A stretch of DNA of 37,028 bases from a virus (Duplodnaviria > Heunggongvirae > Uroviricota > Caudoviricetes). The position numbers and the translations under genes are program-made. The notes beneath the pieces were generated by a model. It was not told where the DNA came from. It saw only the letters and a program-made list of their open reading frames with translations, and made no database searches. Position 1 is the stretch's first letter. Each line of letters opens with the position of its first letter. This document shows positions 1,614-37,028 of this stretch, one piece after another. The stretch lies in IMG/VR virus record IMGVR_UViG_2690316076_000004. The stretch is one strand, 5' to 3'.

Positions 1614-1653
1614 GCCCCTATCGTTATAATACGCGGTAGGGGCGTTTTTGTTT
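1614..1653 (+). terminator. putative intrinsic terminator
   Basis: GCCCCTA...TAGGGGC stem followed by GTTTTTGTTT. Confidence 0.5.
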
Positions 1654-1662
1654 GGAAATGGT

Positions 1663-3342
1663 ATGAAAACTAAACTGTATTCGTATATTCGCTTCTCGTC
1701 TATGCGTCAGAATGATGGTTCGAGTTATGAACGACAAATCAGGATGGCGAGAGAGGTTGCGGCAAAGTATGACCTTGAACTGGTAAATGATTATCAGGAT
1801 CTGGGTGTATCTGCGTTTAAGGGTGCTAACTCTAAAACAGGGGCGCTATCTCGTTTCCTTGATGCAATTGGTAGATCCGTTCCTGTTGGTAGCTGGCTAT
1901 TCATTGAAAACTTGGACCGCTTATCCCGTGCCGATATTGTCAGTGCGCAGGAGTTATTCCTTTCAATCATCCGTAGGGGGATAACCATTGTTACTGGCAT
2001 GGATAACAAGATCTACTCGCTGGATACTGTTACCGCTAACCCGATGGACCTGATGTTCTCCATCCTTTTATTCATCCGTGGTAATGAGGAAAGCCAGACT
2101 AAGCGCAATCGTACTAACTCAAGCGCACTGATTAAGATTAAAGCTCATCAAGAAAATCCACAAAATCCGGCAGTGGCAATCGAGGAAGTTGGAAAGAATA
2201 TGTGGTGGACTGATACCACTTCCGGTTATGTGTTGCCTCATCCTACATACTTCCCTGTTGTTCAGGAGATTGTGGAATTACGGAAGAATGGACGTTCAAC
2301 CGCCGAAATACTGGATCACCTTAACGAGACATATACACCGCCACCAGCAGTAAGCAACAAGAAGCATTCAAAATGGTCACGGGCAATGGTTGAAAGGTTG
2401 TTCCATACCCGCGCTTTGATTGGTATCAAGGAAGTCTCTGTAGATGGTGTTAACTATGAGTTAAAGGATTATTACCCTCGTGTTATTGATGATGCTACGT
2501 TCTATCACCTTAAGAAAAATATTGGTGCTAGAGCATGGAACTTTGGAGACAAGGAAGAAGTTAAACCGATCCCCCTGCTTAGTGGTATTGGCCTATTGAA
2601 ATGTGATCATTGCGGTTGCGCTATGGTTAAAGTGAAGGGAACGAACAAACGTTCTGACCAGTATCGTTATACATGTGATGCGACCCGTTCACGTAGACTT
2701 GATTGCGAGCATCCAAACTGGAGTTTTCGAGGTGATCAATTAGAGAAAGCTGTATTGCAATTGCTGGCTGATAAAATATGGATTGCTGAGGACAAGGCTA
2801 ATCCGGTTCCGGCGTTGAAAGTACAGGTTGATGAAATATCACGCAAGATTGATAACCTGATTGCCCTTTCTGCTATGACAGGAGCAACGAAGGAGCTAGC
2901 CGATCAGATTACTACCCTCAATAGCGAGCGTGAAACACTCTACAATCAGATCAAGATGGCAGAAGAGGAAATGTATTCTGTGGACTCTCAAGGCTGGGAG
3001 AAGCTCGCAGAATTTGATTTAGAAGATGTTTATAACGAGGAACGACTAAAGGTCCGGTTTAAGATTAAGCAAGCTCTAAAGCGGATCGGGTGTAGCAGGA
3101 TTGACAGAAACAAAAACTTGTTTGTACTGGAATACATCGATGGAAAAACCCAGAGAGTTGTAATAGAAAATTCAAGAGGAACGAGGAAAGGCCGGATCTT
3201 CATTGATTTGAAGACTATCAATGATAGGCAGATTCTGGAGAGCAACGGGCTTGTTCTGCATCCATGTTTAGACATGCTGACAGATAAGAACTGGAAACCA
3301 GAAGAGGAAATACCAGGTCCATTACAGGAATTTGGAATTTAA
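1663..3342 (+). CDS. large serine recombinase (resolvase/integrase family)
   Basis: N-terminal resolvase catalytic pattern (YSYIRFSS...Q), recombinase domain, Cys-rich zinc ribbon (CDHCGC...CDATRSRRLDCEH), C-terminal coiled-coil; track start at 1648 is TTG, ATG at 1663 preferred. Confidence 0.85.
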   Translation: MKTKLYSYIRFSSMRQNDGSSYERQIRMAREVAAKYDLELVNDYQDLGVSAFKGANSKTGALSRFLDAIGRSVPVGSWLFIENLDRLSRADIVSAQELFLSIIRRGITIVTGMDNKIYSLDTVTANPMDLMFSILLFIRGNEESQTKRNRTNSSALIKIKAHQENPQNPAVAIEEVGKNMWWTDTTSGYVLPHPTYFPVVQEIVELRKNGRSTAEILDHLNETYTPPPAVSNKKHSKWSRAMVERLFHTRALIGIKEVSVDGVNYELKDYYPRVIDDATFYHLKKNIGARAWNFGDKEEVKPIPLLSGIGLLKCDHCGCAMVKVKGTNKRSDQYRYTCDATRSRRLDCEHPNWSFRGDQLEKAVLQLLADKIWIAEDKANPVPALKVQVDEISRKIDNLIALSAMTGATKELADQITTLNSERETLYNQIKMAEEEMYSVDSQGWEKLAEFDLEDVYNEERLKVRFKIKQALKRIGCSRIDRNKNLFVLEYIDGKTQRVVIENSRGTRKGRIFIDLKTINDRQILESNGLVLHPCLDMLTDKNWKPEEEIPGPLQEFGI

Positions 3343-6832: not shown

Positions 6833-9800
6833 TTAAGAAACAGAAATACCAGTAGCGGCTTTCTTAGTTACCATTACCGTTAGATCGCTGATATATGCAC
6901 TTGGGTTATAGTTGTTAACGCCCTTACAGTAAACTTCAAAAGTCATTGTTACTGCCCCGTGTCCGGCTGGCATGTCAATAACTCCACTGTACATACAGCC
7001 AGAAGTTGCAGTGCGATCATATAGAACACCACCATTTTTCTTAACGATTAGTCGGCAAGTATCCCAATGATCGCTACTTTCGCCACGACGAACAGACCCG
7101 TTATGATGAATCGCTGGAATCACTATTTGGCGATCGAATGGATGATCATCTTCGACCCTTACAGTGATTGCACCATCAGGCCAGTTTGGTTGGCGATGTG
7201 GGAAACTCCTACCAACCACTTTCACGAAGTCACCACGCACCTGATTAGCATCAAGCATACCCAAAATGCGGCAACTTGAATTAATCGTTACGTTGTTCAT
7301 TTCGCCGGAATCAGCCACCAAATGACCACGAATATTAGCGTGTCTAAAATGACAAGTGCCATCTTTGCCGATATACCATCCATCGTTACCATTCCAGTTA
7401 TAAGACTGGATATAGTTACCAATTTTAGCATTATCGATAGAGCCATCAATGATATGACCTGTTCCGATCTGTGCGTGTTGGATGTGAGCGCCGTTAATCT
7501 GGGCTGTGCCGATCTTAGCCGTGGTGATACTAGCATCACTAATCTGGGCTGTGCCAATTGCAGCATTACGAATCATCGCATTATCAAGATAAACTTTGTT
7601 ATCTTCGATGCCAAACGGACAAACTTCTGATCCGTCTTGTGGAGCTACCGCGATTTTATCAGCCGTAAAGATGATTCTTGTCGGTTCTGCCGGATCATTG
7701 GTTGCGCTCATATGAATACCAGCCACGCGACCATCTGCATTAACTGCCAGATTATATTTGCTGTTAATGGTTCCCTTCAAAGCATCGATTTTTACATCTG
7801 CTTCCTGATTCACACCAGCAATCTTGCCATCCATTTCTACCCGAACTTGATCAATCTTACTTGCGCTTGCTGCCTCACTGGTAGCAATTGCTTGTTTCAG
7901 GGTAGTAGCGGATGCGCTAACTTCTTTGGTGATATCGCCTTTCAGTTCAGCTTTAACCTGATCAATCTTAGTTGCGCTGGCTTGCTCACTGGTAGCAATC
8001 AGACTCTTGAGAGTATCGGCTGAGGCTTGGACCGTCTGCCCTGTCTCGGTAGTAATCTGTTTATGCATTGCATCAATCTTAGCATCGGCATTAGCGCCAG
8101 CTTGAGCAATAGCATCCGCGATGGTTTCATCTAAGCGATCTTGTAAACCAATCAGGTCTTCCAGTGCTTCTTTGTCCTGATCGTCCCAGCTAATGGTAGA
8201 TTTCATTTGCATGAAATACGGTTCAGACCAAACAGCATCATCCATACCGAAAATATCATAGTGAGCACCACGGATATAATAATCACCGTCAGCCAAATCA
8301 AAGGAAGTATGACTAACGCTATTGGTAGTCACTGCCCTTGCATCGGAGAAAGTATTATCGGTTGCATACTGGATGATTGACCCTGCATAGTCATGTTCTA
8401 CGTCATCCGCCCAGCTAACAAACGCAGTATTAAAGCCACCACGCGCACTAAAACCTTTCATCGGCTTATGTTGTGGGTTGATAGCCACTAAACGCGCTGG
8501 GGCGCTCTCTGAGTTGTTATAGCCCTTGACTGATACTTCTACCGTCAATTCACGGGAAAGGCCGTTAAACTGGTTCATATCAAGCGTATAAGTCCATGAT
8601 TCAGGATCGCGGGTACGGTACTGAATAGACTTACCAGCCTTGTTAGTTACCTTGATAATGTATGCTTCAAACAGGTCACTAAACTTGTTAGCTTCACCGT
8701 TGATCATCACATCTAATTGTTGCTGATTTTCCCATTCGATAATCAGATCATTGCCTTCGAAAGTACCAGGGGAGCTACCCTGATTTTTGATTCGAATAAC
8801 CGGAGTCGGCAATTCATAGGTAACAGTAGGATTCTGGTTAACCAGTTCCACCCATTCGGAACGAGCAATAATACCGAAAGCACAAACGCGGTAATCGTAG
8901 GAGCGATCTTTTGCCAGTGCATTGATATTGAAAATTTGCTGTGAAGTCTGTCCCAGCTTAATCCAGTTAGGTGATCCACTCACACGATAATCAATCTGGA
9001 AACCGTAGCGGTTGAAATCTTCCGGTGCATCCCATGTCAAAGTTACGTTTTTACCGTGGATGGTTTCACCAGTTGCCTTAATTCTGAAATTAGTAGGCTT
9101 CTGTACTGTCATTGAATCCGGTAAACCACTTGGTCGGTTATCTGGGTTAGCCGCATAGTTTAGGTCAGTATAAACCTGAGAATTATATTCTGTAGCGGTG
9201 ATAGTCATCATCCCAGCAATACCAGAATCAATAGAGCGATCAATTGCAGTAATACGCCAAAGTGAATTATTCAGTTTTAATTCATCATAGGTTACGCTGA
9301 TAACGTCCCATACTTCGGCGGTGAATGCGTCAGTAGTCATAAAGCTGATAACCTGAGTGATACGAGATTTATTTCGTTCTACACTCGCAAGTTTATCAAT
9401 CTGGGCTTTAGACTTAACAAAACGATATTCAATATCTTTAGCGATAATTCGACCATCTTGACGAATAGTAGCATCGTTTTCAGCATCAGCCGGATAACGT
9501 AGCATTTGCTCTGAATAGTCGATTGATGGTTCTTGATACATCGCGTTAATGGTATTGAAATAACCGTTAGTGCCACCTGTTTTCAGTGATACTTTTCCCA
9601 TCATGATATTGTCTTCATTGAAGGTATGCTTAACAATATCAGGAGCATCCAGTTTCAGCGTAATACGTCCAAAGGATTCGAACATCACCCCGCCGAAAGT
9701 CTGCATAAGGCTAGTTAAGTTCTCTTTAAAGCTGGCGTTCGGATCACATGCACCGTTGGAATGTAAATCCATCTGGCGTACTTGTTTACGCACTTTCAGG

Positions 9801-27191: not shown

Positions 27192-29099
27192 TTAGAACGA
27201 TGTTACCCAGCTACGGCCTCTATTTGGGCGTCTGGCGATGTTTTGACGTTGCGGTCGTGTGATTGGCTTAGTTTCTTCTATTTGCTCGTCAGATTGCGAT
27301 TTAGGAGCTTCTACGGATTCTTCGACAACACGGTTTAAGCTGTCTTTCATTGCAATGAGTTTATCCCATGACATTTTTGAAAGAACGTAGCGAGAAGCAG
27401 CATAGCTATAAACCAGACAGTCGAGAGCCTCGTTTCGGGTACTACCTGGATTTTTCACCCAACGCACGCCAGTAGTAGTACGCTTGATGGATTCACTCAA
27501 AAGCTGATCGAGATAATCATCAGGAACGGTTTCTGATATTTCTAAGCCAATATGAGGATTATCTTTCAGGTTTCTAACCAGCATTTCACGAACAGCGGAT
27601 TTCCCAACGTTAACACCCAGCATAAGCAATTCATGACCACCTGTACGGGTAGGTTTAACCGGAATCACTGGAGCATTACCAGATGAACTACCTTTGATAG
27701 CGTGTAGGTTCTTCCACTTGCCGCAAATACGGTATCCGGCTTGAGTGAATCGACCGTTCGATGTATCAAGGAAACTGGCGAGCATTGGTACACGTTCACC
27801 ATTAACGTTATAGAATTTGGTTTTCTTGAAGTTAACCAGACGATCCCAAACAGGTGATTCATATCGTTCACAGTTATGATCGTAAAAGCTGCGGTGATCC
27901 AGAATGTAAACCTTATCTTTCGCTACACCTAAGATGGTAGATTCTGCGCGGTCCAATTGCTGGTCAATTCCTGAGCACAAGAAAATCACGTCATCAGGGA
28001 TATTCTCGATAGAAACATCTGTTTTGAGTTGTTCCAGTTCATTTGCTTCTACTGCCGTGTCCTGATCGTCGTATACCTTGCCTAACACGGTGTTATAAAA
28101 TGATTGTAAATCAAAGGATTGCCACGCATGGCTAAAATCAACAACACAAGCGCGGATCGTGCTGAAAGGTGAATACAGACGGCTAATCCAGAATCCAGCT
28201 ACTTCACTTTCTCTCGTTACTCGCCATTCACCAGCAGCCACCGCCCTGATCCGCTCTCCTTCTGTCCATGCGTTCTTACAGTGGGGGCAAATATAACGAG
28301 CGGTATCAGGATCGGGTAAGTTCTTACCATCGATGTTACGCCATTCAAATTGAACGTTTTCCCACTCGATCACCTGGTGTTCCCCGCAATGAGGACACGG
28401 AACAAAAAACATACGCATATCGCTTGATAACCATTGCTGGTTAATGCTTCCGAGCTTACTGGTCGGGGTGCTGGATACGACTAATCGACCTTCATCGCCA
28501 AAGGTAGTTAAACGGTTAGCAGCCAGTGCCACCGGATCACCTTCTTCTGAGGCTGTAGCAGCATCGATTTCGTCAAGTAATCCAACCTTTGCGGTCTTAC
28601 CGCGTAGGGTTGATGGACTGGTAAGCGATACCATGTAAAGGAAGTGATTCGTTTTTAGCTGTAGCTGGTTATTGTTGTTAACCGCATTGCGATCATTCTT
28701 GTCTGTAACAACGTCTTTTAATGCATCACATGCTTCGATAGACGGTCGGATCTTACCAGCGAGATATTGAGACATTTCTTTAGCGGTTGATTGTCCGATA
28801 ATCATATTGCATGGATCGTTAGCCATCTGGTTAAACAGGATACCGTTCAGGATGGTAGTCTTTCCGATCTGTGCACTGGTCATCAGGACATACTTTTTCT
28901 TGTTCTCAAGGAAAGGTGCATCAATCATGCCTTTTTGGAATGACAACAATTTAACTTTATCCCCAGCTTGAGGACCATCTACCAGCACCATATTCGCTTC
29001 GCACCATTCAGACGGAAGGAGTTTAGGCGGTGGAGTGATATATTTTGCGGCATTTTTAAGAATCTTTTTTAATTTGGCCTTGTTCGAAATCAGTTTCAT
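27192..29099 (-). CDS. terminase large subunit, lambda gpA-like
   Basis: [26 protein letters not shown] (Walker A-like), [21 protein letters not shown] all mirror remembered gpA motifs; ATG at 29099 with GAGGG RBS preferred over track start 29174. Confidence 0.93.
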
Positions 29100-29142
29100 G
29101 TAATTACCCTCATTACGAAATATGAAGGTATTTATTAAATTG

Positions 29143-29170
29143 TTGATATTTTGATAAATACGGGTATTAA
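29143..29170 (+). promoter_or_regulatory. candidate sigma70-type promoter in divergent terL/HTH-gene intergenic region
   Basis: TTGATA (29143-29148), 16-nt spacer, TATTAA (29165-29170), about 15 nt upstream of the 29185 ATG. Confidence 0.35.
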
Positions 29171-29184
29171 TCAAAGGGGGTTGT

Positions 29185-29787
29185 ATGCTAATTAATCAGC
29201 AAGAAAGAGATGAATTAGAATTAGCCTTGTCTTGTACCGATCATGAATATCGTTTGCCAGTTAAGCACCATCACAAGAAGACTGATTACACAACATCCGG
29301 CTTTAGTCGCGAGGAAGCGAAGCAAATTTTAATAGAGTTGTATCGCGATCAGGGATATACAGATATTCACAACTTCTTTAAGAAGCACCGAACATCACAG
29401 ACAGAGTTCCAGAGAGTCCGTGAATGGTTTGATTTTGATATCAAGCGTTATTATCGAGTGGATGACGGTCCGATCTATCGGTTGCAGTGGACACCGATCA
29501 GGGAAGTGTTGAAACAGAAGAGACTAAATCACGCTATTACACGCTATCGTAACGTGGCTTTTAAGAAAGGATATGGTGATACAAGGGAACTATTCGTTGA
29601 ACTCGCTAACGTGCGATATAGCCATTATTACAGGAATCCTAAAGAGTTCTTCGAAGTGCTGCGCAAGGTTGATATAAGTCGGGGTACATACTATTCACGG
29701 TTGAAGAAGTACGGGATTAAGGCAGAGTTCTTTATGAGTATTGACGATGGAGAACTTTTTCCGATAAAATGTAAGTCCTCTAAATAA
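29185..29787 (+). CDS. HTH DNA-binding protein (C-terminal resolvase-type helix-turn-helix)
   Basis: C-terminal [15 protein letters not shown] resembles Hin/resolvase-type HTH; AAGGGGG RBS. Confidence 0.5.
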
Positions 29788-29815
29788 AGGTGAACATTCA
29801 CTTTAATTTGGAGAA

Positions 29816-30046
29816 ATGACTATGACTACTAAAGCTACTCGCGGTCGTCCTTGCCGTTTTGATCGTGAACAACTGGCAGCGATTGTAAAAGCGTACTATC
29901 AAGCACCGAAAGGTAAAGCCGAAAAAGAGCAAGTATTGAGTGAACACGGTATTTCAATCGCTCAATTCTACAAATCACTCCATAAAGTTGATTTGAAATT
30001 CTTTGTTCAGGTTGACGGTGAAATGGTAGAAGCAACAGGAATTTGA
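29816..30046 (+). CDS. small HTH protein, paralog of 33578-33757
   Basis: RGRPCRFDREQL ... GISIAQFYKSL parallels MARPVKFTREMI ... GIDRSGFYKLM in the 33578 gene; GGAG RBS. Confidence 0.5.
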   Translation: MTMTTKATRGRPCRFDREQLAAIVKAYYQAPKGKAEKEQVLSEHGISIAQFYKSLHKVDLKFFVQVDGEMVEATGI

Positions 30047-30053
30047 TTCTCTA

Positions 30054-30082
30054 GGCCAATCCTTCGGGGTTGGCCTTTTTTA
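30054..30082 (+). terminator. intrinsic terminator
   Basis: GGCCAATCC-TTCG-GGGTTGGCC stem followed by TTTTTTA. Confidence 0.8.
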
Positions 30083-30086
30083 TATC

Positions 30087-30314
30087 CGCTCAAAACTGAG
30101 CACATCTCTAAGTCATTGATTCTTCCGATGAGTCCAGATTTGGACTGATCTATAGATGCCCTCAAAACTGAGGAGATGTGCTTAAAGTTCAGCGTATCTA
30201 TCTAAGTGGTTGATTCTTTCGAGAAATTCAAACTTGAATCAATCGGCGCAAAACTGCGCTCATCTCTAACCTATTGATTCTTCCGATAAATCCAAATCTG
30301 GATGCATCAGATAC
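30087..30314. repeat. three-unit degenerate repeat (~70-85 bp each) with IHF-consensus motifs and short palindromes
   Basis: units start CAAAACTG(A/C)G; each contains ATTGATTCTT whose complement fits WATCAANNNNTTR, followed by GTCCAGATTTGGAC / ATTCAAACTTGAAT / ATCCAAATCTGGAT near-palindromes. Confidence 0.7.
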
Positions 30315-30344
30315 AAAAAAGCCCAGCGCAATTATGCGCTGGGC
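30314..30344 (-). terminator. intrinsic terminator after Rha-like gene
   Basis: perfect 10-bp stem GCCCAGCGCA-ATTA-TGCGCTGGGC followed on minus strand by TTTTTTGT. Confidence 0.85.
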
Positions 30345-30350
30345 GATTAA

Positions 30351-31184
30351 TCAGATCCCAAAATCAACAAGGGAAATTACGTTACCTGATTCACGAATCT
30401 GTTTAGCAGCTTTGTTTTGAATCAGAATAGTGTTATTTGGCTGCGGCAGTTTAAGAGTTGCTTTCTGTTCTTCTTCCAAAACGCCCAATTCAACCAGCAC
30501 CGGAAGAACATCAACAGTAAACTCAAGCTGGTAATGAGCATTCATGCGGCAGAAAGACAGAGAAGAGTCATTAGCAACATACCCACACGGCTTGTTATTT
30601 TCATCATAGACGCGCTCAATGTAGCCAGCAGTACGTAAGGCCGTCAGTGCTTGTTTAACCTTCGTAGCGCCCTTTTTAGCGCCTAACAGACGTGTCATAG
30701 AATGGCTATCTACGGATTTGCGAATGTGTAGCTCAATCAGTTTTTTATTTTTGCGTTTTTCATCTAATGCCAGTTCGATCCAGTCGGTTTCTTCAAAGTC
30801 CGCATACGGGTTAACAGGAGTATTATTGGCGGTTTTCAGTTTCTCTTCCAGATAATTCCAACGGTCAACCAGTTGGCGAGTAAATTCCGGTACGTTTTGA
30901 GCAATCAAGACAATCGAATCTAAGCGACCTTGCTCACCCTCAAACACATAATCTTTAACAGTAACAGCAAACCCTAAGTTATTGATTTTCTCGAAATTCT
31001 GCGTTGCAGGTTTTCGGATAACTTGGCGTTCAACCAGTCGGTTCATAGAAGTTTCAAGGTTTGAAAAACGAACTCCAATAAGGTCGGCAATTTCACGAAG
31101 AGTCATTTTTGCAACTTCGTTATCAACAACCAGAGACACGGAAGCAGTTTTAACAGCAGTATTCATAGTAGTAACAGTATTCAT
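30351..31184 (-). CDS. Rha/ORF6N-type phage regulatory protein (antirepressor-like)
   Basis: N-terminal MTLREIADLIGVRFSNLETSMNRL resembles Rha/ORF6N DNA-binding pattern; family call from memory. Confidence 0.5.
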   Translation of the reverse strand: MNTVTTMNTAVKTASVSLVVDNEVAKMTLREIADLIGVRFSNLETSMNRLVERQVIRKPATQNFEKINNLGFAVTVKDYVFEGEQGRLDSIVLIAQNVPEFTRQLVDRWNYLEEKLKTANNTPVNPYADFEETDWIELALDEKRKNKKLIELHIRKSVDSHSMTRLLGAKKGATKVKQALTALRTAGYIERVYDENNKPCGYVANDSSLSFCRMNAHYQLEFTVDVLPVLVELGVLEEEQKATLKLPQPNNTILIQNKAAKQIRESGNVISLVDFGI

Positions 31185-31273
31185 AGTAAAAATTCCCCTT
31201 AAACGGTTTAATGATTTGGTCCTCCTAGTTCCGGCATCACCACCGGAACAATTTTATTTATAATAGAAATTTA

Positions 31274-31606
31274 TTACCAATCGATTTCTACTTGGTCTTC
31301 TTCATAATAAGGAATCGCATATTCATAACGCCAGTTTTCGATGATTTCACGTTCTTCATTAGTAAGAAGGTGATTGCTAACTGGAGTTGCATTGTGATTA
31401 CCAGCTTCGAATTGCTCGCGAACTTCCAGCATTGCATGAATACCAGTTAAGGACATCAGATCAAACGGAACATGCATACTACGGGAGATAGTTTCACGGG
31501 ATACACCCCAATCATTTTCTACATGGCTAGGGGTTACAGAAACGGTTTTGCCGGAGATTTTAACAGTCCAGTCATACAGGGATTTAGTGATGGTAAATTC
31601 TTTCAT
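31274..31606 (-). CDS. hypothetical protein
   Basis: 110-aa ORF with AAGAGGA RBS; preceded by a strong promoter-like element. Confidence 0.55.
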   Translation of the reverse strand: MKEFTITKSLYDWTVKISGKTVSVTPSHVENDWGVSRETISRSMHVPFDLMSLTGIHAMLEVREQFEAGNHNATPVSNHLLTNEEREIIENWRYEYAIPYYEEDQVEIDW

Positions 31607-31662
31607 GTTACATCCTCTTTACAAATCTAGGTCAAATAGGTTCAAAGTTGTCAAGTGCGATA

Positions 31663-31704
31663 ATCATAAAAAAGTCATAAAATTTTGTCAATACCCCTTG
31701 ACAA
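31663..31704 (-). promoter_or_regulatory. sigma70-type promoter with overlapping palindromic operator
   Basis: minus strand TTGACA (31686-31691), 17-nt spacer, TATGAT (31663-31668); inverted repeat TTGTCAA-N6-TTGACAA (31685-31704) overlaps the -35. Confidence 0.5.
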
Positions 31705-31726
31705 GACGCCAAAGGGTTGACCTAAC

Positions 31727-32185
31727 TTACAGCATATCTAAGCCTTCATCGTAACCGTAGAAGCCATTCTGAGAAGAGAAACAGATTGGAGCGTAGTCTT
31801 CGTCTTCCTCATCTTCTTCATCTTGTTCTGGGGCTTCCTGAGCGGGTTGTTTACCGTAATCAGCCATAATCTGGTCAAGATCGGCGATCCCATAGTAAGA
31901 GCCTAAATCAACATCGTATTCACGAACATCAAACGGCAGGTCATCACGAACAATAATTGCTGGTAGATTCTGGTATTGTTCACGATCTTCATCAGTGAAG
32001 CAGTCAACTACCACCGTAGGACGACCATTGCGTTTAAGAGCATAGAAAGCAGTTGAATAGTTGGAGTCTTCGGAATGACGAATGATGTTATAACCACGAT
32101 TAGCGAAAACTTCTAGCATATGGAAGTTGCCGTAGTTTTCAGAGTCCAGACCCAGAAGTACGAAAGGAGTTTTAGTATTGATCAT
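31727..32185 (-). CDS. acidic protein (C-terminal Asp/Glu run)
   Basis: 152-aa ORF with AGAGGA RBS; C-terminus EAPEQDEEDEEDEDY. Confidence 0.55.
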   Translation of the reverse strand: MINTKTPFVLLGLDSENYGNFHMLEVFANRGYNIIRHSEDSNYSTAFYALKRNGRPTVVVDCFTDEDREQYQNLPAIIVRDDLPFDVREYDVDLGSYYGIADLDQIMADYGKQPAQEAPEQDEEDEEDEDYAPICFSSQNGFYGYDEGLDML

Positions 32186-32766
32186 AGTGGTATCCTCTAA
32201 AAAGAAAGTGAATCAATCTAATATTATTTATAAAGAGAAAATTCTTGTTATTATGAAAGGTGATTGGATTCAGTCGGCTTCGCCTCCTTCATGATTTTTG
32301 ATTAAATCATCGTCAAAACGAAGAAGTATCTTTAGAATATAAGAATCTTTCTTTTGGAGAAATAATAATCAGGAAGCAATTTAGCAACCGAAGGTTGCAA
32401 TCCCGAAGGGATACCAATACCTTTCATGATCATTAAAGTGATTATTACTATCTTTCTAGAATCAGTTAGTAACTAGTTTAAAATCCCTTTCGAGAAAATC
32501 CTTTCAGAAGTGATTCTCGATGCCACGCAGTGGCGTCGCAGACGTTTGAGAGTGAGCGAAGCGAGCGAGCAAACTAGTTAATTCCTTCTAAGACCATCTA
32601 GTATCATCTAGTTTAAATTAGTTGTTACTAGAAGCAATTGGTTGGCGCTTCGCGCAGTCGGGCTAAAGCCCTCCTAATATCTTTCTGGTTATTTGTTGTT
32701 TTTAGTTTTACACATGAGCGTAGCGAATGTGTTATATAATATCTATGCACGCCGAATCCCTGCTTT

Positions 32767-33010
32767 TGCCCCTCGCTAAGTTAATGTTTTATAAAGAGTT
32801 TTTCTCACCAATTCCTTTCAGGGGCAAATTTCAGGGGCAAAAATTAGATTTTCAGGGGCAATTATTGGCATTTCAGGGGCAAAAATGAGGGGCAAAATCA
32901 CCGTTTCCCAGAATTTCAGGGGCAAAAATATAGGGTTTCAGGGGCAAAAATGGGATGTGGAATCTAGGGGATTTTGGTTCAGGGGCAAAAATTCAGAATT
33001 TCAGGGGCAA
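32767..33010. repeat. iteron-like array of TTCAGGGGCAA
   Basis: exact 11-mers at 32817, 32830, 32851, 32872, 32915, 32937, 32978, 33000, variants at 32886 and ~32963, one inverted core at 32767-32775; spacing mostly 21-22 bp or multiples. Confidence 0.85.
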
Positions 33011-33100
33011 TTCCCATCAAATATTTTGATAGAAAATTCCTGTATATTATTTAATCAAAAAATCACCAAAAAGCGGCGTAAGTTAATGATTTAAAAAGAA

Positions 33101-33126
33101 TTGTCAAAAGGTCTCCGTGCTATAAT
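33101..33126 (+). promoter_or_regulatory. possible extended -10 promoter
   Basis: TTGTCA then TGC-TATAAT (TGnTATAAT) at 33118-33126; -35 spacing suboptimal (14 nt). Confidence 0.3.
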
Positions 33127-33206
33127 AGGTTATAAAGGTTGATAATCCTGCTCTACCATTTTCAAACAAAAATTTTGATAGTCATTTCTCGCTTAGGTCA
33201 AGTGTA

Positions 33207-33235
33207 TTGACAACTGTCAAGGATTATTTTATACT
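33207..33235 (+). promoter_or_regulatory. strong sigma70-type promoter
   Basis: TTGACA (33207-33212), 17-nt spacer, TATACT (33230-33235); overlaps TTGACAA/TGTCAA near-palindrome. Confidence 0.5.
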
Positions 33236-33371
33236 TTTTCTCACTGGTGGGGGTTGAAATTTTCTAAACAGTCCCCATATAGATGATAAGCAAGAATTTC
33301 CACGTTATAAATACATGTGTGAAATGATTGTTCACTTCTGAAAATCTCCTGATTCACTGCTAATTCATACA

Positions 33372-33400
33372 GCACTGGTTAGATATACAGTGCTTTTTCG
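33372..33400 (+). terminator. hairpin + T-tract (leader terminator/attenuator 1)
   Basis: AGCACTG-GTTAGATATA-CAGTGCT followed by TTTT. Confidence 0.4.
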
Positions 33401-33457
33401 GTTGAATATTGTACGAATTGATTAATAATTAATCTTCTCTTTAGCAATTCGTGCTCC

Positions 33458-33484
33458 CACTGATCGGATATACAGTGGTTTTAC
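33458..33484 (+). terminator. hairpin + T-tract (leader terminator/attenuator 2)
   Basis: CCACTG-ATCGGATATA-CAGTGG followed by TTTTA; same CACTG..GATATA..CAGTG architecture as 33372. Confidence 0.4.
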
Positions 33485-33523
33485 AGGGTTTTCTGAAAAT
33501 CATTTTATAAATACAAGTGTTCA

Positions 33524-33544
33524 GAGCGAAATGCTCTTTTTTAA
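33524..33544 (+). terminator. hairpin + T-tract directly upstream of small HTH gene
   Basis: AGAGC-GAAAT-GCTCT followed by TTTTTT, about 20 nt before the RBS of the 33578 gene. Confidence 0.45.
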
Positions 33545-33577
33545 GAAATTATTAATCCACATGTGAGGAATCGACTG

Positions 33578-33757
33578 ATGGCTAGACCTGTTAAGTTCAC
33601 TCGTGAAATGATTGTTGATATTGCTAAACGCTTTTACAGCGACACTGAGCGAGGCGGGGAAAACTTCTTTAAGAAGGAAGGAATTGATAGAAGCGGATTC
33701 TACAAGCTAATGAAGAAATACGAAATTCAGGTAAAGATTAACGTTCAAGTTTGTTAA
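33578..33757 (+). CDS. small HTH protein, paralog of 29816-30046
   Basis: ATG at 33578 with TGAGGAA RBS (track start 33563 is GTG); sequence parallels the 76-aa protein. Confidence 0.5.
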   Translation: MARPVKFTREMIVDIAKRFYSDTERGGENFFKKEGIDRSGFYKLMKKYEIQVKINVQVC

Positions 33758-33871
33758 TCCACTTTCACTGAGAATTATATGATGGCTTTAAAAAAGAAAA
33801 AGCCTCCTTTGCTGCAACAAGGGAGGCTTGAAATGAACAATTAAAACTAACTTTCCACAGGAGTATTTATA

Positions 33872-34834
33872 ATGTTATTTTCCGCTAACTTTTTCACTAA
33901 CGAAGTAACCAACGCTAAAGCAGTTATCAAATTTGGCACCGAAGCAAACAAGAAGATTCAGCCGAAAGTTGTTGCTCATGTTTCCTTTGCGCAGCAGAAA
34001 TCCGCTTTCGCTGGCTTTAAAGCACATCGTGAAGCACTGATCGCGGCTGGCTTTGGTGTTGACGGTAAACTGCCTAACGGCATTCGTAAAGCAATCGACC
34101 GCGTTAAACCTGCTAAAGACGTTGCAGTAGACCACATCGTTACTTTCACCGTTAAGAACTCTTCTGAACTGTTCCACCTAGTGATTGCTGGTGATACTGC
34201 TATCGTTTCCGCTCCTAACATGGATTTTCAGGATACCGCTGATTGCAACATTACCTTTGGTCGTCGTAAAGAAGTTACCGGAAAAGCTAAACTGAACTTC
34301 ACCAAATCCGGCAATCCTTACTTTGCTGTATTCTTTAACAGCCACGCTACTGAGAAAGAAGTAGTAGAACTGGTTGCATATGAAGGTGAAGAAAAAGCAC
34401 GTATTGAATCTTGCGACGCTTTCGTAGAACTGGAAGCACAGGTTAATGCTGTTTCTCCGGTTGCTGTTGAAGATCGTTTCTCTGCACTGGAAGCACAGAT
34501 CGCAGAACTGAAAGCTGCACTGAAAGAAAAAGACCAGATCATCGAAGCACAGAAAGCTGAGATTGAAGAACTGAAAGCTAAAGAAGTTGCTCCGGTTGCT
34601 GTTGAAGCAGATCGGGAAGTTGAATCTAAAGACTTCTTTACTCAAGCGGTTGAATCTAAAGACAAACAAGCTCTTTGGATTCTGCTTAACGAAAAGCGTA
34701 CTGTTGCAGACGTTGCAGAATGGAACAAATACCTGATTAAGAAAAATGGTTCTTCCGTTCAATTCATCGATTTAATGACAGTTAAAGTTTTTGATGCGTT
34801 CGAAAATGTGTTCGACGTTCGCAAAGCAGCTTAA
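33872..34834 (+). CDS. hypothetical protein with host-like high-expression codon usage and central coiled-coil
   Basis: 320-aa ORF with AGGAG RBS; codons dominated by CTG, CGT, GGT, AAC, GAC, ACC unlike the AT-rich structural genes; coiled-coil EAQIAELKAALKEKDQIIEAQKAEIEELKAK. Confidence 0.65.
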   Translation: MLFSANFFTNEVTNAKAVIKFGTEANKKIQPKVVAHVSFAQQKSAFAGFKAHREALIAAGFGVDGKLPNGIRKAIDRVKPAKDVAVDHIVTFTVKNSSELFHLVIAGDTAIVSAPNMDFQDTADCNITFGRRKEVTGKAKLNFTKSGNPYFAVFFNSHATEKEVVELVAYEGEEKARIESCDAFVELEAQVNAVSPVAVEDRFSALEAQIAELKAALKEKDQIIEAQKAEIEELKAKEVAPVAVEADREVESKDFFTQAVESKDKQALWILLNEKRTVADVAEWNKYLIKKNGSSVQFIDLMTVKVFDAFENVFDVRKAA

Positions 34835-34860
34835 TTTTTAATTTAATTGGAGACCCTACT

Positions 34861-35202
34861 ATGGCAACTTTAAACGAAAAAGCACTGTCCCGTAAAACTC
34901 TGAAAGAGAAAAACATGATTCTTTCTGAAACGCTAAAACAGACTAATGCTGAGTGTGAATTTTTGACCATTAAACTTTCGATTAAAGAGAAAGAATGCAA
35001 TGAGCTAATGGAAAAGTACAAATCCTTACATGATAATTACGTGAAACTTGGTGAAGGATTTAAAGCCATGCAAGAAGACTACAAGAAATCATTGAGGGAA
35101 CAGATTAAACTACTTGAAGAATTGAAAGGGTATAGAGAAAAGTCCGTTAAAGAAAAGAAAATACAGAAGATGAAAAACAAAGGATTGCGTCTTGTTGCTT
35201 AA
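34861..35202 (+). CDS. coiled-coil protein
   Basis: 113-aa Lys/Glu-rich ORF with GGAG RBS. Confidence 0.55.
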   Translation: MATLNEKALSRKTLKEKNMILSETLKQTNAECEFLTIKLSIKEKECNELMEKYKSLHDNYVKLGEGFKAMQEDYKKSLREQIKLLEELKGYREKSVKEKKIQKMKNKGLRLVA

Positions 35203-35204
35203 GA

Positions 35205-35232
35205 CAATAAAAAAGGGACTCCGAAGAGTCCC
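35205..35232. terminator. intrinsic terminator (strong on minus strand)
   Basis: GGGACTC-CGAA-GAGTCCC; minus-strand downstream TTTTTTATTG. Confidence 0.65.
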
Positions 35233-35304
35233 TAGTAAGTTTAGGTTAGGTTTGCACAACAAAGATGAGGTTATAATGAACATAATGCTACATTATTCTT
35301 TAAA

Positions 35305-35335
35305 GCCAGAAAAATAACCGCCCCGAAGGGGCGGG
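35305..35335 (-). terminator. intrinsic terminator of leftward terS transcript
   Basis: CCGCCCC-GAAG-GGGCGG; minus-strand downstream TTATTTTTCTGG. Confidence 0.6.
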
Positions 35336-35492
35336 AGGATTAACACTCAATCTATACTTGTTATGTTTTTATGTTGTATAGATCACTGACTATGAAAACA
35401 CTGTACTGGAGTGTGTTTTATGGCTTTTAATCGGGAATCCTCAAAGAAGATCCCCTGTTAATAACCATAAGGAGAAAAGGCAGATTACACTA

Positions 35493-35777
35493 TTATTTAG
35501 TCTGTTTGAAAACAAACGTTAAAAATTCGATTAAGCAATATACCCAGAGTACGGTCATCATCAAATGCATAGCAATAGTTGGATGGAAGTTAAAAAGTGT
35601 CATACTAACTAGGCCAACAATATAAGAAATTCCTTCGACAATTAACGCAAGGCTAGCAAATGCAACAAACGCACCTAAGAATAATTCGCCTCGTTCTTTC
35701 GGTTCGGTTCCGAGTTTATAAGCAGAGATAGCAGCCAGAATAGTAATGATGACAGCATAGGTAATAAAAGTAGCCAT
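35493..35777 (-). CDS. small 3-TMD membrane protein (possible holin)
   Basis: 94 aa, three hydrophobic helices; AAGAGGA RBS; no firm family assignment. Confidence 0.5.
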   Translation of the reverse strand: MATFITYAVIITILAAISAYKLGTEPKERGELFLGAFVAFASLALIVEGISYIVGLVSMTLFNFHPTIAMHLMMTVLWVYCLIEFLTFVFKQTK

Positions 35778-35871
35778 AGTTTTATATCCTCTTAAAAGTT
35801 AAGCGGGGGATGTTCTCCCCCGTAGGCGTTGACCCGTTCAACACCCTTCATACATTTATTTATAACGCGTT

Positions 35872-36426
35872 TTAAGACACATCAAATTCATCGTCTTCAT
35901 CTGGTTCTTGTTCCGGTTCATCGATTAATGGTAATTCTTCTTCCTCGTCTTCTCCCAAATCCGCATTTTCGAACAAGTCCCCTACTTCATTTAAACGACG
36001 CTCGATGATCTCCCTTAGCTTATTCTTCAATGTTTTCTGGTCGGTGGCAGATTCTAAAATTTCTAAAGCATCGATTGTGGCGATCTGCAAAATAGTCTGT
36101 TTCACTTTCCCGCAATATTCCGCTAGTTCCTGTTCTACATAACCGACCGGAATCAGGAGGTTCATTGCTTCCTGGTTCTCTCGTTCGGCTGCATCTGCCA
36201 ATGCTCTCTCACGGCGTAATTTCTCTACGTCGATTTGTTCTTTGATGGAAGTGTTTTTTAACGGGTTAATGATGTTCTTTAGCACCCAATCGCAACCTTC
36301 TTTGGCTGGAACACGTCGTGTGTTGGTGTTAAATGGCAATCCCCTTTCTATCCATCGCTTACCGCCACCATTCAATGAATAGCCGTATAAACGGGAAATT
36401 TCTGTAAGGGTTAATTCTTCTTTCAT
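35872..36426 (-). CDS. terminase small subunit, lambda Nu1-like
   Basis: N-terminal LTLTEISRLYGYSLNGGGKRWIERGLPF and EKLRRERALADA resemble remembered Nu1 (QLADIFGASIRTIQNW...RGGGKG... ENEKLRRE); acidic C-terminus; GGAGGA RBS. Confidence 0.75.
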   Translation of the reverse strand: MKEELTLTEISRLYGYSLNGGGKRWIERGLPFNTNTRRVPAKEGCDWVLKNIINPLKNTSIKEQIDVEKLRRERALADAAERENQEAMNLLIPVGYVEQELAEYCGKVKQTILQIATIDALEILESATDQKTLKNKLREIIERRLNEVGDLFENADLGEDEEEELPLIDEPEQEPDEDDEFDVS

Positions 36427-36546
36427 TGGTTATCCTCCATTAAATTTGCGTAATTTTATTTATTGGTTTTACGCACAATCTAAGCGCCTAAATCGCATTC
36501 TAACGAAGGGAAAGATCCAGTAATGGTAAGGGCTAGGAAGTGGGTT

Positions 36547-36573
36547 AATAGTCGCGTAGCGACCGCGCTAGGA
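36547..36573. other. candidate cos-type cleavage region (GC-rich, partly symmetric)
   Basis: AATAGTCGCGTAGCGACCGCGCTAGGA is a GC-rich island with internal GTCGC..GCGAC symmetry, ~120 bp upstream of the Nu1-like gene start; GCGACC echoes the lambda cohesive end. Confidence 0.25.
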
Positions 36574-36722
36574 CTGCACTGATCACGTTTTAAAATCTCA
36601 CACGCGTATCAAATACCGGGGTGCCGAAAACTCCCTTTATTTCACCCGTGGAACAGTACCTTTTGATTTTGTCAAGTCTTTTTTATAAATAATCGAAAAT
36701 ATTTTTCACACGAGGGCAAATC

Positions 36723-37028
36723 ATGAAGACTAAAGATATTAAGATTGAATTTGAAACTGTTGATGACGTTCGGGAACATCGCATTGATTCTACTGGCTGC
36801 ATCTTCCAGCTTACTAACTCCCCTATTGGATTGATTATCTATGTAGCAGAAGATGACGTGTACGCTATATGGGATGGACAGGATGAGTTTAAAGGCGGGA
36901 ATAGCCATCTGATCAATACTCATGAGGGATTTGATCCGACTCCTGTCTGTATGCTTGCTTATCACGTAACACTGGATGAACTACCGGAAGCAAGCGCGCG
37001 TATCCGTAGAATGAAAGACATTAAGTGA
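36723..37028 (+). CDS. hypothetical protein
   Basis: 101-aa ORF with GAGGG RBS, preceded by TATAAATA-containing promoter-like region; stop at last bases of window. Confidence 0.55.
   Translation: MKTKDIKIEFETVDDVREHRIDSTGCIFQLTNSPIGLIIYVAEDDVYAIWDGQDEFKGGNSHLINTHEGFDPTPVCMLAYHVTLDELPEASARIRRMKDIK

Follow-up and report, generated by a model that had tools for sequence, protein, structure and literature searches.

A phased repeat array in an Escherichia prophage changes sequence together with the N-terminal head of a neighboring protein

The window analyzed here, a 37,028-nucleotide stretch from IMG/VR (record IMGVR_UViG_2690316076_000004), is essentially one complete ~36-kb Escherichia prophage. 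A gene-poor gap in its early region contains an array of short direct repeats, and the gene for a 320-amino-acid protein, p320, starts 0.86 kb to the right of the array. An earlier note, written from the sequence alone, had described the array as phased iterons with the architecture of a replication origin, a centromere-like site, or a regulator binding array. By comparing related prophages, we found that the array is real, phased, and noncoding and that its sequence changes only, and always, with the N-terminal head of p320. The elements concerned are as follows.

32816 to 33013, plus strand: direct-repeat array of 9 copies; the unit, TTTCAGGGGCAAAAAT, is longer than the 11-mer
32820, 32833, 32854, 32875, 32888, 32918, 32940, 32981, and 33003, plus strand: AGGGGCAA cores of the array
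32764 to 32773, minus strand: single inverted copy of the repeat core, TTTTGCCCCT (short core TTGCCCCT at 32766 to 32773)
33872 to 34834, plus strand: p320
33872 to 34381, plus strand: N-terminal head of p320 (amino acids 1 to 170), the putative array-binding domain, delimited by covariation and a structure model
34382 to 34834, plus strand: rest of p320, comprising a linker, a coiled coil (about amino acids 199 to 237), and a C-terminal tail of ~70 amino acids ending in ...RKAA

The 11-mer TTCAGGGGCAA occurs in eight exact plus-strand copies (at 32817, 32830, 32851, 32872, 32915, 32937, 32978, and 33000), far above the number in shuffled sequences (mean, 0.57; maximum, 3), and no exact copy lies outside 32817 to 33010 in the whole 37-kb window. 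The ninth direct core is the variant ATGAGGGGCAA (32885 to 32895). Core-to-core distances are, in order, 13, 21, 21, 13, 30, 22, 41, and 22 bp; the conserved unit is ~13 to 16 bp, and the spacing is mostly 21 to 22 bp or multiples thereof, so that the array has at least three direct repeats ~22 bp apart and in helical phase, as expected of iterons. The sites share one helical face (R = 0.83 at 10.7 bp, matched by 0.6% of random arrangements). The A5 tracts of the array, which is of the type called A below, are likewise phased, with a power reached by 0 background windows. The copy number and helical spacing given in the earlier note thus stand; the single inverted core that it reported is present as well, at 32766 to 32773 rather than 32767 to 32775. 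This inverted core sits ~45 bp left of the first direct copy, is kept in most A-type relatives, and is found in two further relatives, L021 and L025.

As the earlier note had said, the surrounding ~1.4 kb (32186 to 33577) is gene poor: it contains only short open reading frames (ORFs), none of 70 or more amino acids, and no conserved ORF. RefSeq annotates a 69-amino-acid ORF across the array (window positions 32885 to 33094) in a relative. Because this frame is broken in another relative, L011, where it is cut to 27 amino acids, and whole repeat units are gained or lost among relatives, we regard the ORF as spurious and the array as noncoding rather than as a coding tandem repeat. The reading of the array as a putative specific protein-binding array, neither a chance cluster nor a coding sequence, is supported.

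The earlier note had proposed a search for the same 11-mer array in other phage genomes. Of the 17 IMG/VR contigs that carry a double 11-mer, 15 come from related prophages and have the same array; L002 and L017 are unrelated matches and were left out. More distant syntenic relatives were found through p320 homologues, after which their contigs were fetched, and further contigs were obtained via the small terminase. A scan of viral contigs for a double B motif (see below) found none, and a scan of genome contigs with the small terminase found no relatives. In all relatives whose gap was examined, an array occupies the same position, ~0.6 to 0.85 kb upstream of the small gene p64, and is oriented as p320. 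At least five different repeat sequences (A to E) fill this position across lineages.

Type A: TTTCAGGGGCAAAAAT, 9 copies, window
Type A': GAGGGGCAAAAAT, 7 copies, L021
Type B1: TGGAATCTAGGGGATTT, 5 copies, L022
Type B2: TGGAATCTTGGGGATTT, 5 copies, L049 (E. coli)
Type B3: TGGAATCCGGGGGATTT, 5 copies, L051 (Salmonella)
Type C: CTAATCCGGGGGA, 7 copies, L052
Type D: TAGTGTAGGTTT, 5 to 9 copies, eleven loci
Type E: (A/C)CGGGGA, 16 copies, L025

Overall, the arrays consist of 5 to 16 direct repeats in a single orientation, spaced mostly 19 to 24 bp or 11 bp apart, and the sites cluster on a helical face in seven of eight arrays. The E array is made of two clusters flanking a 46-bp AT-rich spacer. 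In their own loci, the A', B, and C motifs are confined to the gap; for the short A core, NGGGGCAA, the copies found elsewhere are few and isolated and form no second cluster. Some arrays hold one to three copies of another lineage's repeat: a single B-type copy, TGGAATCTAGGGGATTTT, lies within the A array of the window (32958 to 32975, plus strand), the whole arrays of L022, L049, and L051 being built of this motif; B2 follows the D array of L033; and D occurs within the A' array of L021 (9107 to 9127). Such foreign copies may have been left by recombination between arrays, or they may serve as sites of cross talk with the proteins of coresident prophages.

Every fetched locus received two labels, its array type and the type of the first 170 residues of the protein encoded where p320 lies. 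Cross-tabulation gave a fully diagonal table, with 0 mismatches (array-head combinations A-A, 29; D-D, 11; B-B, 4; C-C, 1; and E-E, 1); the 46 fetched loci correspond to 35 distinct contigs, and the 29 A-A loci to 18, 11 contigs having been fetched twice. The pairing shows gradation, too. Among the B1, B2, and B3 heads, identity is 63 to 79%, and the corresponding repeats (AATCTAGGGG, AATCTTGGGG, and AATCCGGGGG) differ by one or two bases; A and B heads share ~20% identity over a full-length alignment, and their repeats have only a G-run in common; the D head has no detectable relation to those of A and B (hhalign probability, 0.05%), and the D repeat, TAGTGTAGG, is unrelated. Similar heads thus go with similar repeats and unrelated heads with unrelated repeats, which supports the pairing. 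In every locus that has both, repeat specificity covaries with the N-terminal domain, as it does in lambda-type origins. We consider it highly probable, from these comparisons, that the p320 head (the N-terminal ~170 amino acids) is the cognate binder of the array.

The other genes that bear on this assignment, and the landmarks of the prophage, are as follows.

1648 to 3342: large serine recombinase
27192 to 29174, minus strand: gpA-type (lambda-type) large terminase
30351 to 31184, minus strand: Rha/Ant-like protein
Early region between Rha and p152, minus strand: 110-amino-acid protein
31727 to 32185, minus strand: acidic 152-amino-acid protein (p152)
33578 to 33757, plus strand: 59-amino-acid helix-turn-helix (HTH)-like protein (p64), first gene of the rightward operon
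Early region after p320, plus strand: p113
Early region before the small terminase, minus strand: 94-amino-acid membrane protein
35872 to 36426, minus strand: Nu1-like small terminase (TerS; phrog_57, E = 6e-11)

The other neighbors assort independently. L049 differs from the window in two separate unalignable patches, 32698 to 33014 (the array module) and 33873 to 34603 (p320 codons 1 to 244); the 857 bp between array and p320 (33015 to 33872) are 94% identical, as are, at the protein level, p64 (100%), TerS (92%), p200 (86%), p152 (82%), Rha (71%), and the p320 tail (87%) to their respective degrees. L022 and L051 are 98 to 100% identical in TerS (99%), Rha, p152, and p200, with heads 64% identical and repeats that differ by two bases (TA to CG). 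L052 has a C-type array, yet its p152 is 92% identical to that of the window. Because p152, p64, and the small terminase are highly similar across phages with different arrays, we rejected them as binders; the covariation analysis ruled out Rha as well. Among the neighbors that the earlier note had put forward, the acidic 152-amino-acid protein and the 59-amino-acid HTH protein therefore drop out and the 320-amino-acid protein, whose head covaries, is retained.

The same comparison bears on packaging. The phage has a lambda-type gpA large terminase with a Nu1-like small subunit, and terminase recognition sites are often repeated and bent, so the repeats might be cosB- or pac-like sites for the small terminase. 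We consider this most improbable: phages with different arrays share TerS proteins of 92% (L049 versus the window) or 99% (L022 versus L051) identity, and the array lies 2.9 kb from the small terminase gene. A better cos candidate is a GC-rich quasi-palindrome at ~36540 to 36580, directly upstream of the TerS gene (upstream interval, 36427 to 36722), which we note as a candidate cosN. The entire early region separates the genes of the two terminase subunits, which are 6.7 kb apart.

p320 had no match among sequence families or known DNA-binding folds; searches of PDB sequences, phages, and plasmids returned nothing, and no relative has a solved structure. At 50% identity, its family amounts to only 12 clusters in a set of 1.8 billion representative proteins, and the C-terminal 77 amino acids of p320 returned a single fragment as a query. 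The head is modeled as a beta-barrel, not a winged helix. The tail is exchanged independently of the head: in a group of relatives termed type b, an unchanged head is followed by another tail, which is acidic and ends in ...MYGTNFSYCQ, and a third kind of tail is found in L051 and L052. A C-terminal -AA or -LVA is present in several early proteins (p320, ...RKAA at 34826 to 34834; p113, ...RLVA at 35194 to 35202; D-type, ...YAYAA in L026; E-type, ...DFAA in L025), and these ssrA-like endings, which resemble ClpXP tags, suggest that the proteins may be short-lived. Other tail types have an acidic run followed by an aromatic motif (...LHDEMYGTNFSYCQ), and p152 ends similarly.

The array sits within an exchangeable module and is followed by an AT-rich block, two promoter-like elements, and a long leader.

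32698 to 33014: exchangeable array module (hairpin, inverted copy, AT-rich spacer, and array), unalignable between the window and L049 or L052; blastn breakpoints at 32697/32704 and 33015/33017
32710 to 32732, plus strand: stem-loop ACACAT-GAGCGTAGCGA-ATGTGT at the left edge of the module, read by eye with no formal score
32777 to 32800, plus strand: 24-bp box TAAGTTAATGTTTTATAAAGAGTT in the AT-rich spacer left of the array, conserved in L049
33014 to 33110: AT-rich block (75% AT) immediately right of the array, a candidate unwinding region
33016 to 33030: palindrome ATCAAATATTTTGAT in the AT-rich block
33079 to 33102: second copy of the 24-bp box, in the AT-rich block
33118 to 33126, plus strand: P1, promoter-like with extended -10 TGCTATAAT, read from the sequence and not reported by the hexamer scan
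33207 to 33235, plus strand: P2, promoter-like TTGACA-17-TATACT (11/12), found by the hexamer scan
33373 to 33545, plus strand: leader from P2 to the first rightward gene, with three terminator-like hairpins (33373 to 33397, 33458 to 33482, and 33523 to 33545)

The stem-loop at the module edge has counterparts in L049 (3895 to 3925), L051 (3868 to 3896), and L052 (3808 to 3838). Its loop, GAG(G)CG.TAGC(C)GA, is conserved, and its stems differ and compensate per array type (ACACAT/ATGTGT, AGGGGT/ATCCCCT, CAGGGT/ATCCCTG, and TATGGGT/ATCCCATA). To the right of the array, the AT content is 75% over 100 bp in the window, 71 to 78% in four of six variants scored, and 78 to 85% in E, and behind the A, B2, C, D, and E arrays the block has the same sequence; it showed no 13-mer repeats. 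The two promoter-like elements downstream of the array are those that the earlier note had placed there, and the hexamer scan found no promoter-like site inside the array. The P2 -35 element lies within a 14-bp palindrome, TTGACAACTGTCAA (33207 to 33220), which has counterparts in L021 (TTGACATGAGTCAA, 9166 to 9179) and L022 (TTGACGGCTGTCAA, 9350 to 9363) and is a likely operator for a dimeric regulator. The last leader hairpin is conserved in the relatives examined (L011, L021, and L022), and a ~330-nucleotide leader with three hairpins suggests antitermination control or a leader-derived small RNA. The promoter/leader segment (window 32997 to 33505 versus L011 1112 to 1569) is a mosaic module in its own right. 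In type b relatives, it is replaced by unrelated DNA with two strong tandem promoters, and array and p320 head are unchanged. A possible covariation of p320 tail type with this module was also checked, and L052 does not conform.

These features weigh on an RNA-level alternative, in which the transcribed repeats would be bound by oligomeric p320 in the manner of TRAP or HutP to control termination or translation. All repeats do lie in one orientation, and the surrounding gap is rich in conserved hairpins. No convincing promoter reads into the array, however, which is upstream of P1 and P2 and outside their leader; an inverted copy is present; and the site positions follow a DNA helical repeat of 10.7 to 11.3 bp, which is meaningless for RNA. 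We regard such a mechanism as very unlikely.

Left of the array, the gap is dense in short perfect hairpins with C(GNA)G triloops (5 versus 0.10 expected; 32384 to 32398, 32400 to 32412, 32522 to 32534, 32534 to 32544, and 32645 to 32655, with GCGAAGC also at 32556 to 32562), at 3.6 per kb compared with 0.08 per kb elsewhere in the window. They recur at matching places with different, compensating stems in seven of eight relatives; the GNA strand is plus in the left hairpins and minus in those nearest the array. Possible roles are as hairpins in RNA or as priming signals on single-stranded DNA. A second, CTAG-rich repeat family (TCTAGAATCAGTTAGTAAC and CATCTAGTATCATCTAGTTTAAA) occupies 32455 to 32630, has 4 to 5 copies in L049 and L052, and may be the site of another protein. 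Further left, the only match of a search for distant DNA similarity covers 75 nucleotides (32297 to 32371), ~80% identical to unannotated intergenic DNA of RB49-like T-even phages (Krischvirus), which in RB49 lies between ORF165c and ORF164c. Both have the core TTTGATTAAATCAT..TCAAAACGAAGAA..ATCTTTAGAA in common, and the window stretch overlaps a weak promoter-like site (32310 to 32338). Rfam covariance models gave nothing relevant at E ≤ 1 in 29000 to 37028.

The region was found in 61 of 5,426 complete E. coli genomes (~1%), always in the chromosome; the element is absent from 72,556 plasmids, and a megablast search with the gap gave no match in isolated phages or plasmids. In E. coli PEC41, the same ~36.4-kb element interrupts ycdX, and in other strains, it interrupts hicB or persists there as a ~6-kb remnant. 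E. coli BS74R-D (NZ_CP063332.1) carries two complete prophages of the family, one in ycdX and one in hicB (L055 and L056, about 10.4 to 47.7 kb and 415.7 to 452.7 kb). Over the 7.7-kb early region, this pair aligns in two blocks at 82% and 94%, with the same A array, type b leader, and identical p320. A literature search on the motif, the ycdX prophage, and hicB/serine recombinase found nothing relevant.

Elsewhere in the window, the lysis, tail, and head module lies on the minus strand and ends in the large terminase. Three small HTH-like paralogs share an "RPxKF.RE" motif (33578 to 33757, 29816 to 30046, and the C-terminal part of 29185 to 29787). The 76-amino-acid paralog moves as a module of its own, since it is 92% identical in L022, where its neighbors are ~55% identical, and is absent from L021. 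Between the p76 and Rha terminators, 30081 to 30311 holds three direct units of ~60 to 90 bp, each with a small palindrome and a match to the integration host factor (IHF) consensus (30109, 30203, and 30267). We dropped this repeat as an alternative ori or cos, as it is not repeated in L021, L022, L049, or L052; rather than belonging to the core sites of the phage, it probably arose by insertion or expansion. Free-standing genes resembling homing endonucleases (T5orf172/GIY-YIG and NUMOD3) lie at differing prophage positions (L050, 8478 to 9542; L055, 35193 to 35966 and 44458 to 45633).

We propose, with about even confidence for and against, that the array and p320 are the iteron-type replication origin and the initiator of the prophage. 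Upon induction, the rightward early operon would be read through the leader terminators, and p320 would be made. Each N-terminal head would recognize one asymmetric 11- to 16-bp repeat, and the coiled coil would join p320 subunits so that 9 to 10 same-face sites are drawn into one wrapped nucleoprotein complex, aided in type A by phased A-tracts that may bend the array intrinsically. The wrapped complex would strain the adjacent AT-rich block (33014 to 33110), and the variable, often acidic/aromatic C-terminal tail would recruit host replication proteins. We infer physical binding, oligomerization, unwinding, and the role in replication from sequence features and their comparison.

Several features favor an origin: phased direct repeats at one- or two-turn spacing, the AT block flanking most array variants, and the lack of a promoter in the array; the E-type layout, with repeat clusters around an AT-rich spacer; and the lambda-like joint exchange of specificity head and repeats. 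Searches of Pfam, PHROGs, and NCBIfam with the neighbors and the relatives' extra genes returned no replication, partition, or CI-type repressor family, in line with the earlier note, which had recognized no Rep or ParB nearby. As no other replication function is recognizable in the prophage or its relatives, an unrecognized initiator must exist. The position of p320 behind three terminator-like hairpins is that expected of a lytic-phase gene, not of a maintenance repressor. The two coexisting prophages with the same array, leader, and identical p320 argue weakly against an immunity determinant.

Other observations weigh against an origin and its initiator. No initiator fold is recognized in p320, and the binding and replication ascribed to it are deduced from sequence. 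Many of the 35 contigs are closely related, leaving ~5 to 7 independent exchange events. The AT-rich block is swapped out in type b relatives, L021, and L051; the only DnaA box near the array, a relaxed one at 32706, is not conserved in other types; and no IHF consensus was found in the gap. Finally, one metagenomic relative joins an ORF6N (KilA-N-like) head to a stalk and tail of the window type, and proteins of this modular Bro/KilA-like build are usually annotated as antirepressors or regulators.

The ORF6N relative also fits the main alternative, in which p320, with its head, coiled coil, and tail, would be a modular transcription regulator of the Bro/KilA/Ant kind that coats or loops the array to switch the divergent early operons (P1/P2 to the right, p152-Rha to the left). 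The array would then be comparable to the multisite Mu repressor/operator region or the 186 CI wheel and would not be an origin. The array lies between divergent early genes, 100 to 200 bp upstream of P1 and P2, and the covariation fits regulation as well as it fits an origin. In type b phages, moreover, GTGTAGG boxes (the D-type repeat) in the leader lie across the -35/spacer region of the early promoter, which demonstrates that repeats of this kind can occupy positions suited to controlling transcription and counts as a further point against an origin. On the other side, the array neither contains nor overlaps promoter hexamers, exchange of the promoter/leader module is independent of the array, and the terminators ahead of p320 make it unlikely to be a constitutively made prophage repressor. 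The coexisting BS74R-D pair is a further point against this reading. We rate regulation as the sole role of the array as possible yet doubtful. Initiators commonly autoregulate, and the origin and regulatory readings are not exclusive.

A centromere, that is, a parC-like partition site bound by an adaptor protein, would fit the number of copies, the length of the repeat, and the placement of the array ahead of an operon promoter, all comparable to R1 parC. No ParM- or ParA-like ATPase was found among the neighbors searched, though, the p320 model is not actin-like, and all copies found are integrated in chromosomes, in an element with a serine recombinase. A partition role is accordingly very hard to credit. 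Of the architectures offered in the earlier note, a specific binding array is upheld, with origin favored over regulator by its layout, and the centromere becomes unlikely.

If the array is an origin, the p320-position proteins may tentatively be viewed as an undescribed class of phage origin-binding initiators, in which interchangeable, nonhomologous heads on a common coiled-coil stalk are each matched to their own phased array, and the phages, lacking a helicase, loader, or primase of their own, would replicate with a single phage protein plus host factors. The head kinds in such a class would possibly be beta-barrel-like (A, B, and C), D and E, and, in one relative, ORF6N, with variable, acidic/aromatic tails. 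In any case, the pairing assigns a probable function and a DNA target to the orphan p320 family, in prophages otherwise without recognizable replication or immunity genes, and the natural head-array swaps provide at least five ready-made specificity pairs. The p320 head may be a new sequence-specific DNA-binding fold, and the modular heads could be used as orthogonal DNA-binding parts. Should the array be the origin, annotation pipelines would be able to flag the origin and the initiator of each such prophage.

Among known systems, lambda O with ori-lambda is similar in having several phased repeats beside an AT-rich stretch, an initiator whose N-terminal domain determines which repeats are recognized and is swapped along with them between related phages, a separate C-terminal module, and a gene that follows terminators in the rightward early operon. 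Lambda O is an unstable protein, and the ...KAA end of p320 resembles a ClpXP tag. Lambda differs in its four 18- to 19-bp repeats with internal dyad symmetry inside the O gene, compared with 5 to 16 asymmetric repeats 0.86 kb upstream here; p320 lacks Phage_rep_O (it has no Pfam match) or any other replication-family match, its head is modeled as a beta-barrel instead of a winged helix, and this prophage has no P-like helicase loader. Iteron plasmids (F RepE, R6K pi, pPS10 RepA, and RK2 TrfA; P1 RepA with incA) likewise have 4 to 9 direct repeats spaced ~22 bp apart on one face, flanking AT-rich DNA, an inverted partial copy nearby, and the cognate protein encoded beside the repeats. Unlike them, the present locus has no detected Rep_3 or other Rep domain and no conserved DnaA box or IHF site, and it belongs to an integrated prophage that is absent from plasmids.

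The origins of Staphylococcus aureus pathogenicity islands (SaPIs) and other phage-inducible chromosomal islands also show lineage-specific, matched pairs of repeat and protein domain, and the E-type clusters flank an AT-rich spacer as theirs do; SaPI Rep, however, is a helicase encoded with a primase, whereas the p320-position proteins have no detected helicase/NTPase motif. Multisite operators (Mu c repressor O1 to O3, the 186 CI wheel, and P2 C with direct repeats) resemble the locus in their many sites between divergent early promoters and their repressors in combining a DNA-binding head with coiled-coil oligomerization, heads and sites being co-exchanged in heteroimmune relatives. They differ in that the sites here are off the promoter hexamers, the binder gene lies behind terminators in the lytic-side operon, and two prophages of the same type coexist in one chromosome. 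Plasmid R1 parC consists of ten 11-bp direct repeats around a promoter, and the parC/ParR system is thus similar in its about ten 11-bp direct repeats upstream of an operon promoter; here, there is no ParM or ParA, the repeats are 21 to 22 bp apart and not contiguous, and the element is integrated. The array is best described as working most like the lambda O/ori, iteron-plasmid Rep/iteron, and SaPI Rep/ori pairs, yet outside those families, as a repeat array with a cognate modular binder built on an unassigned protein family.

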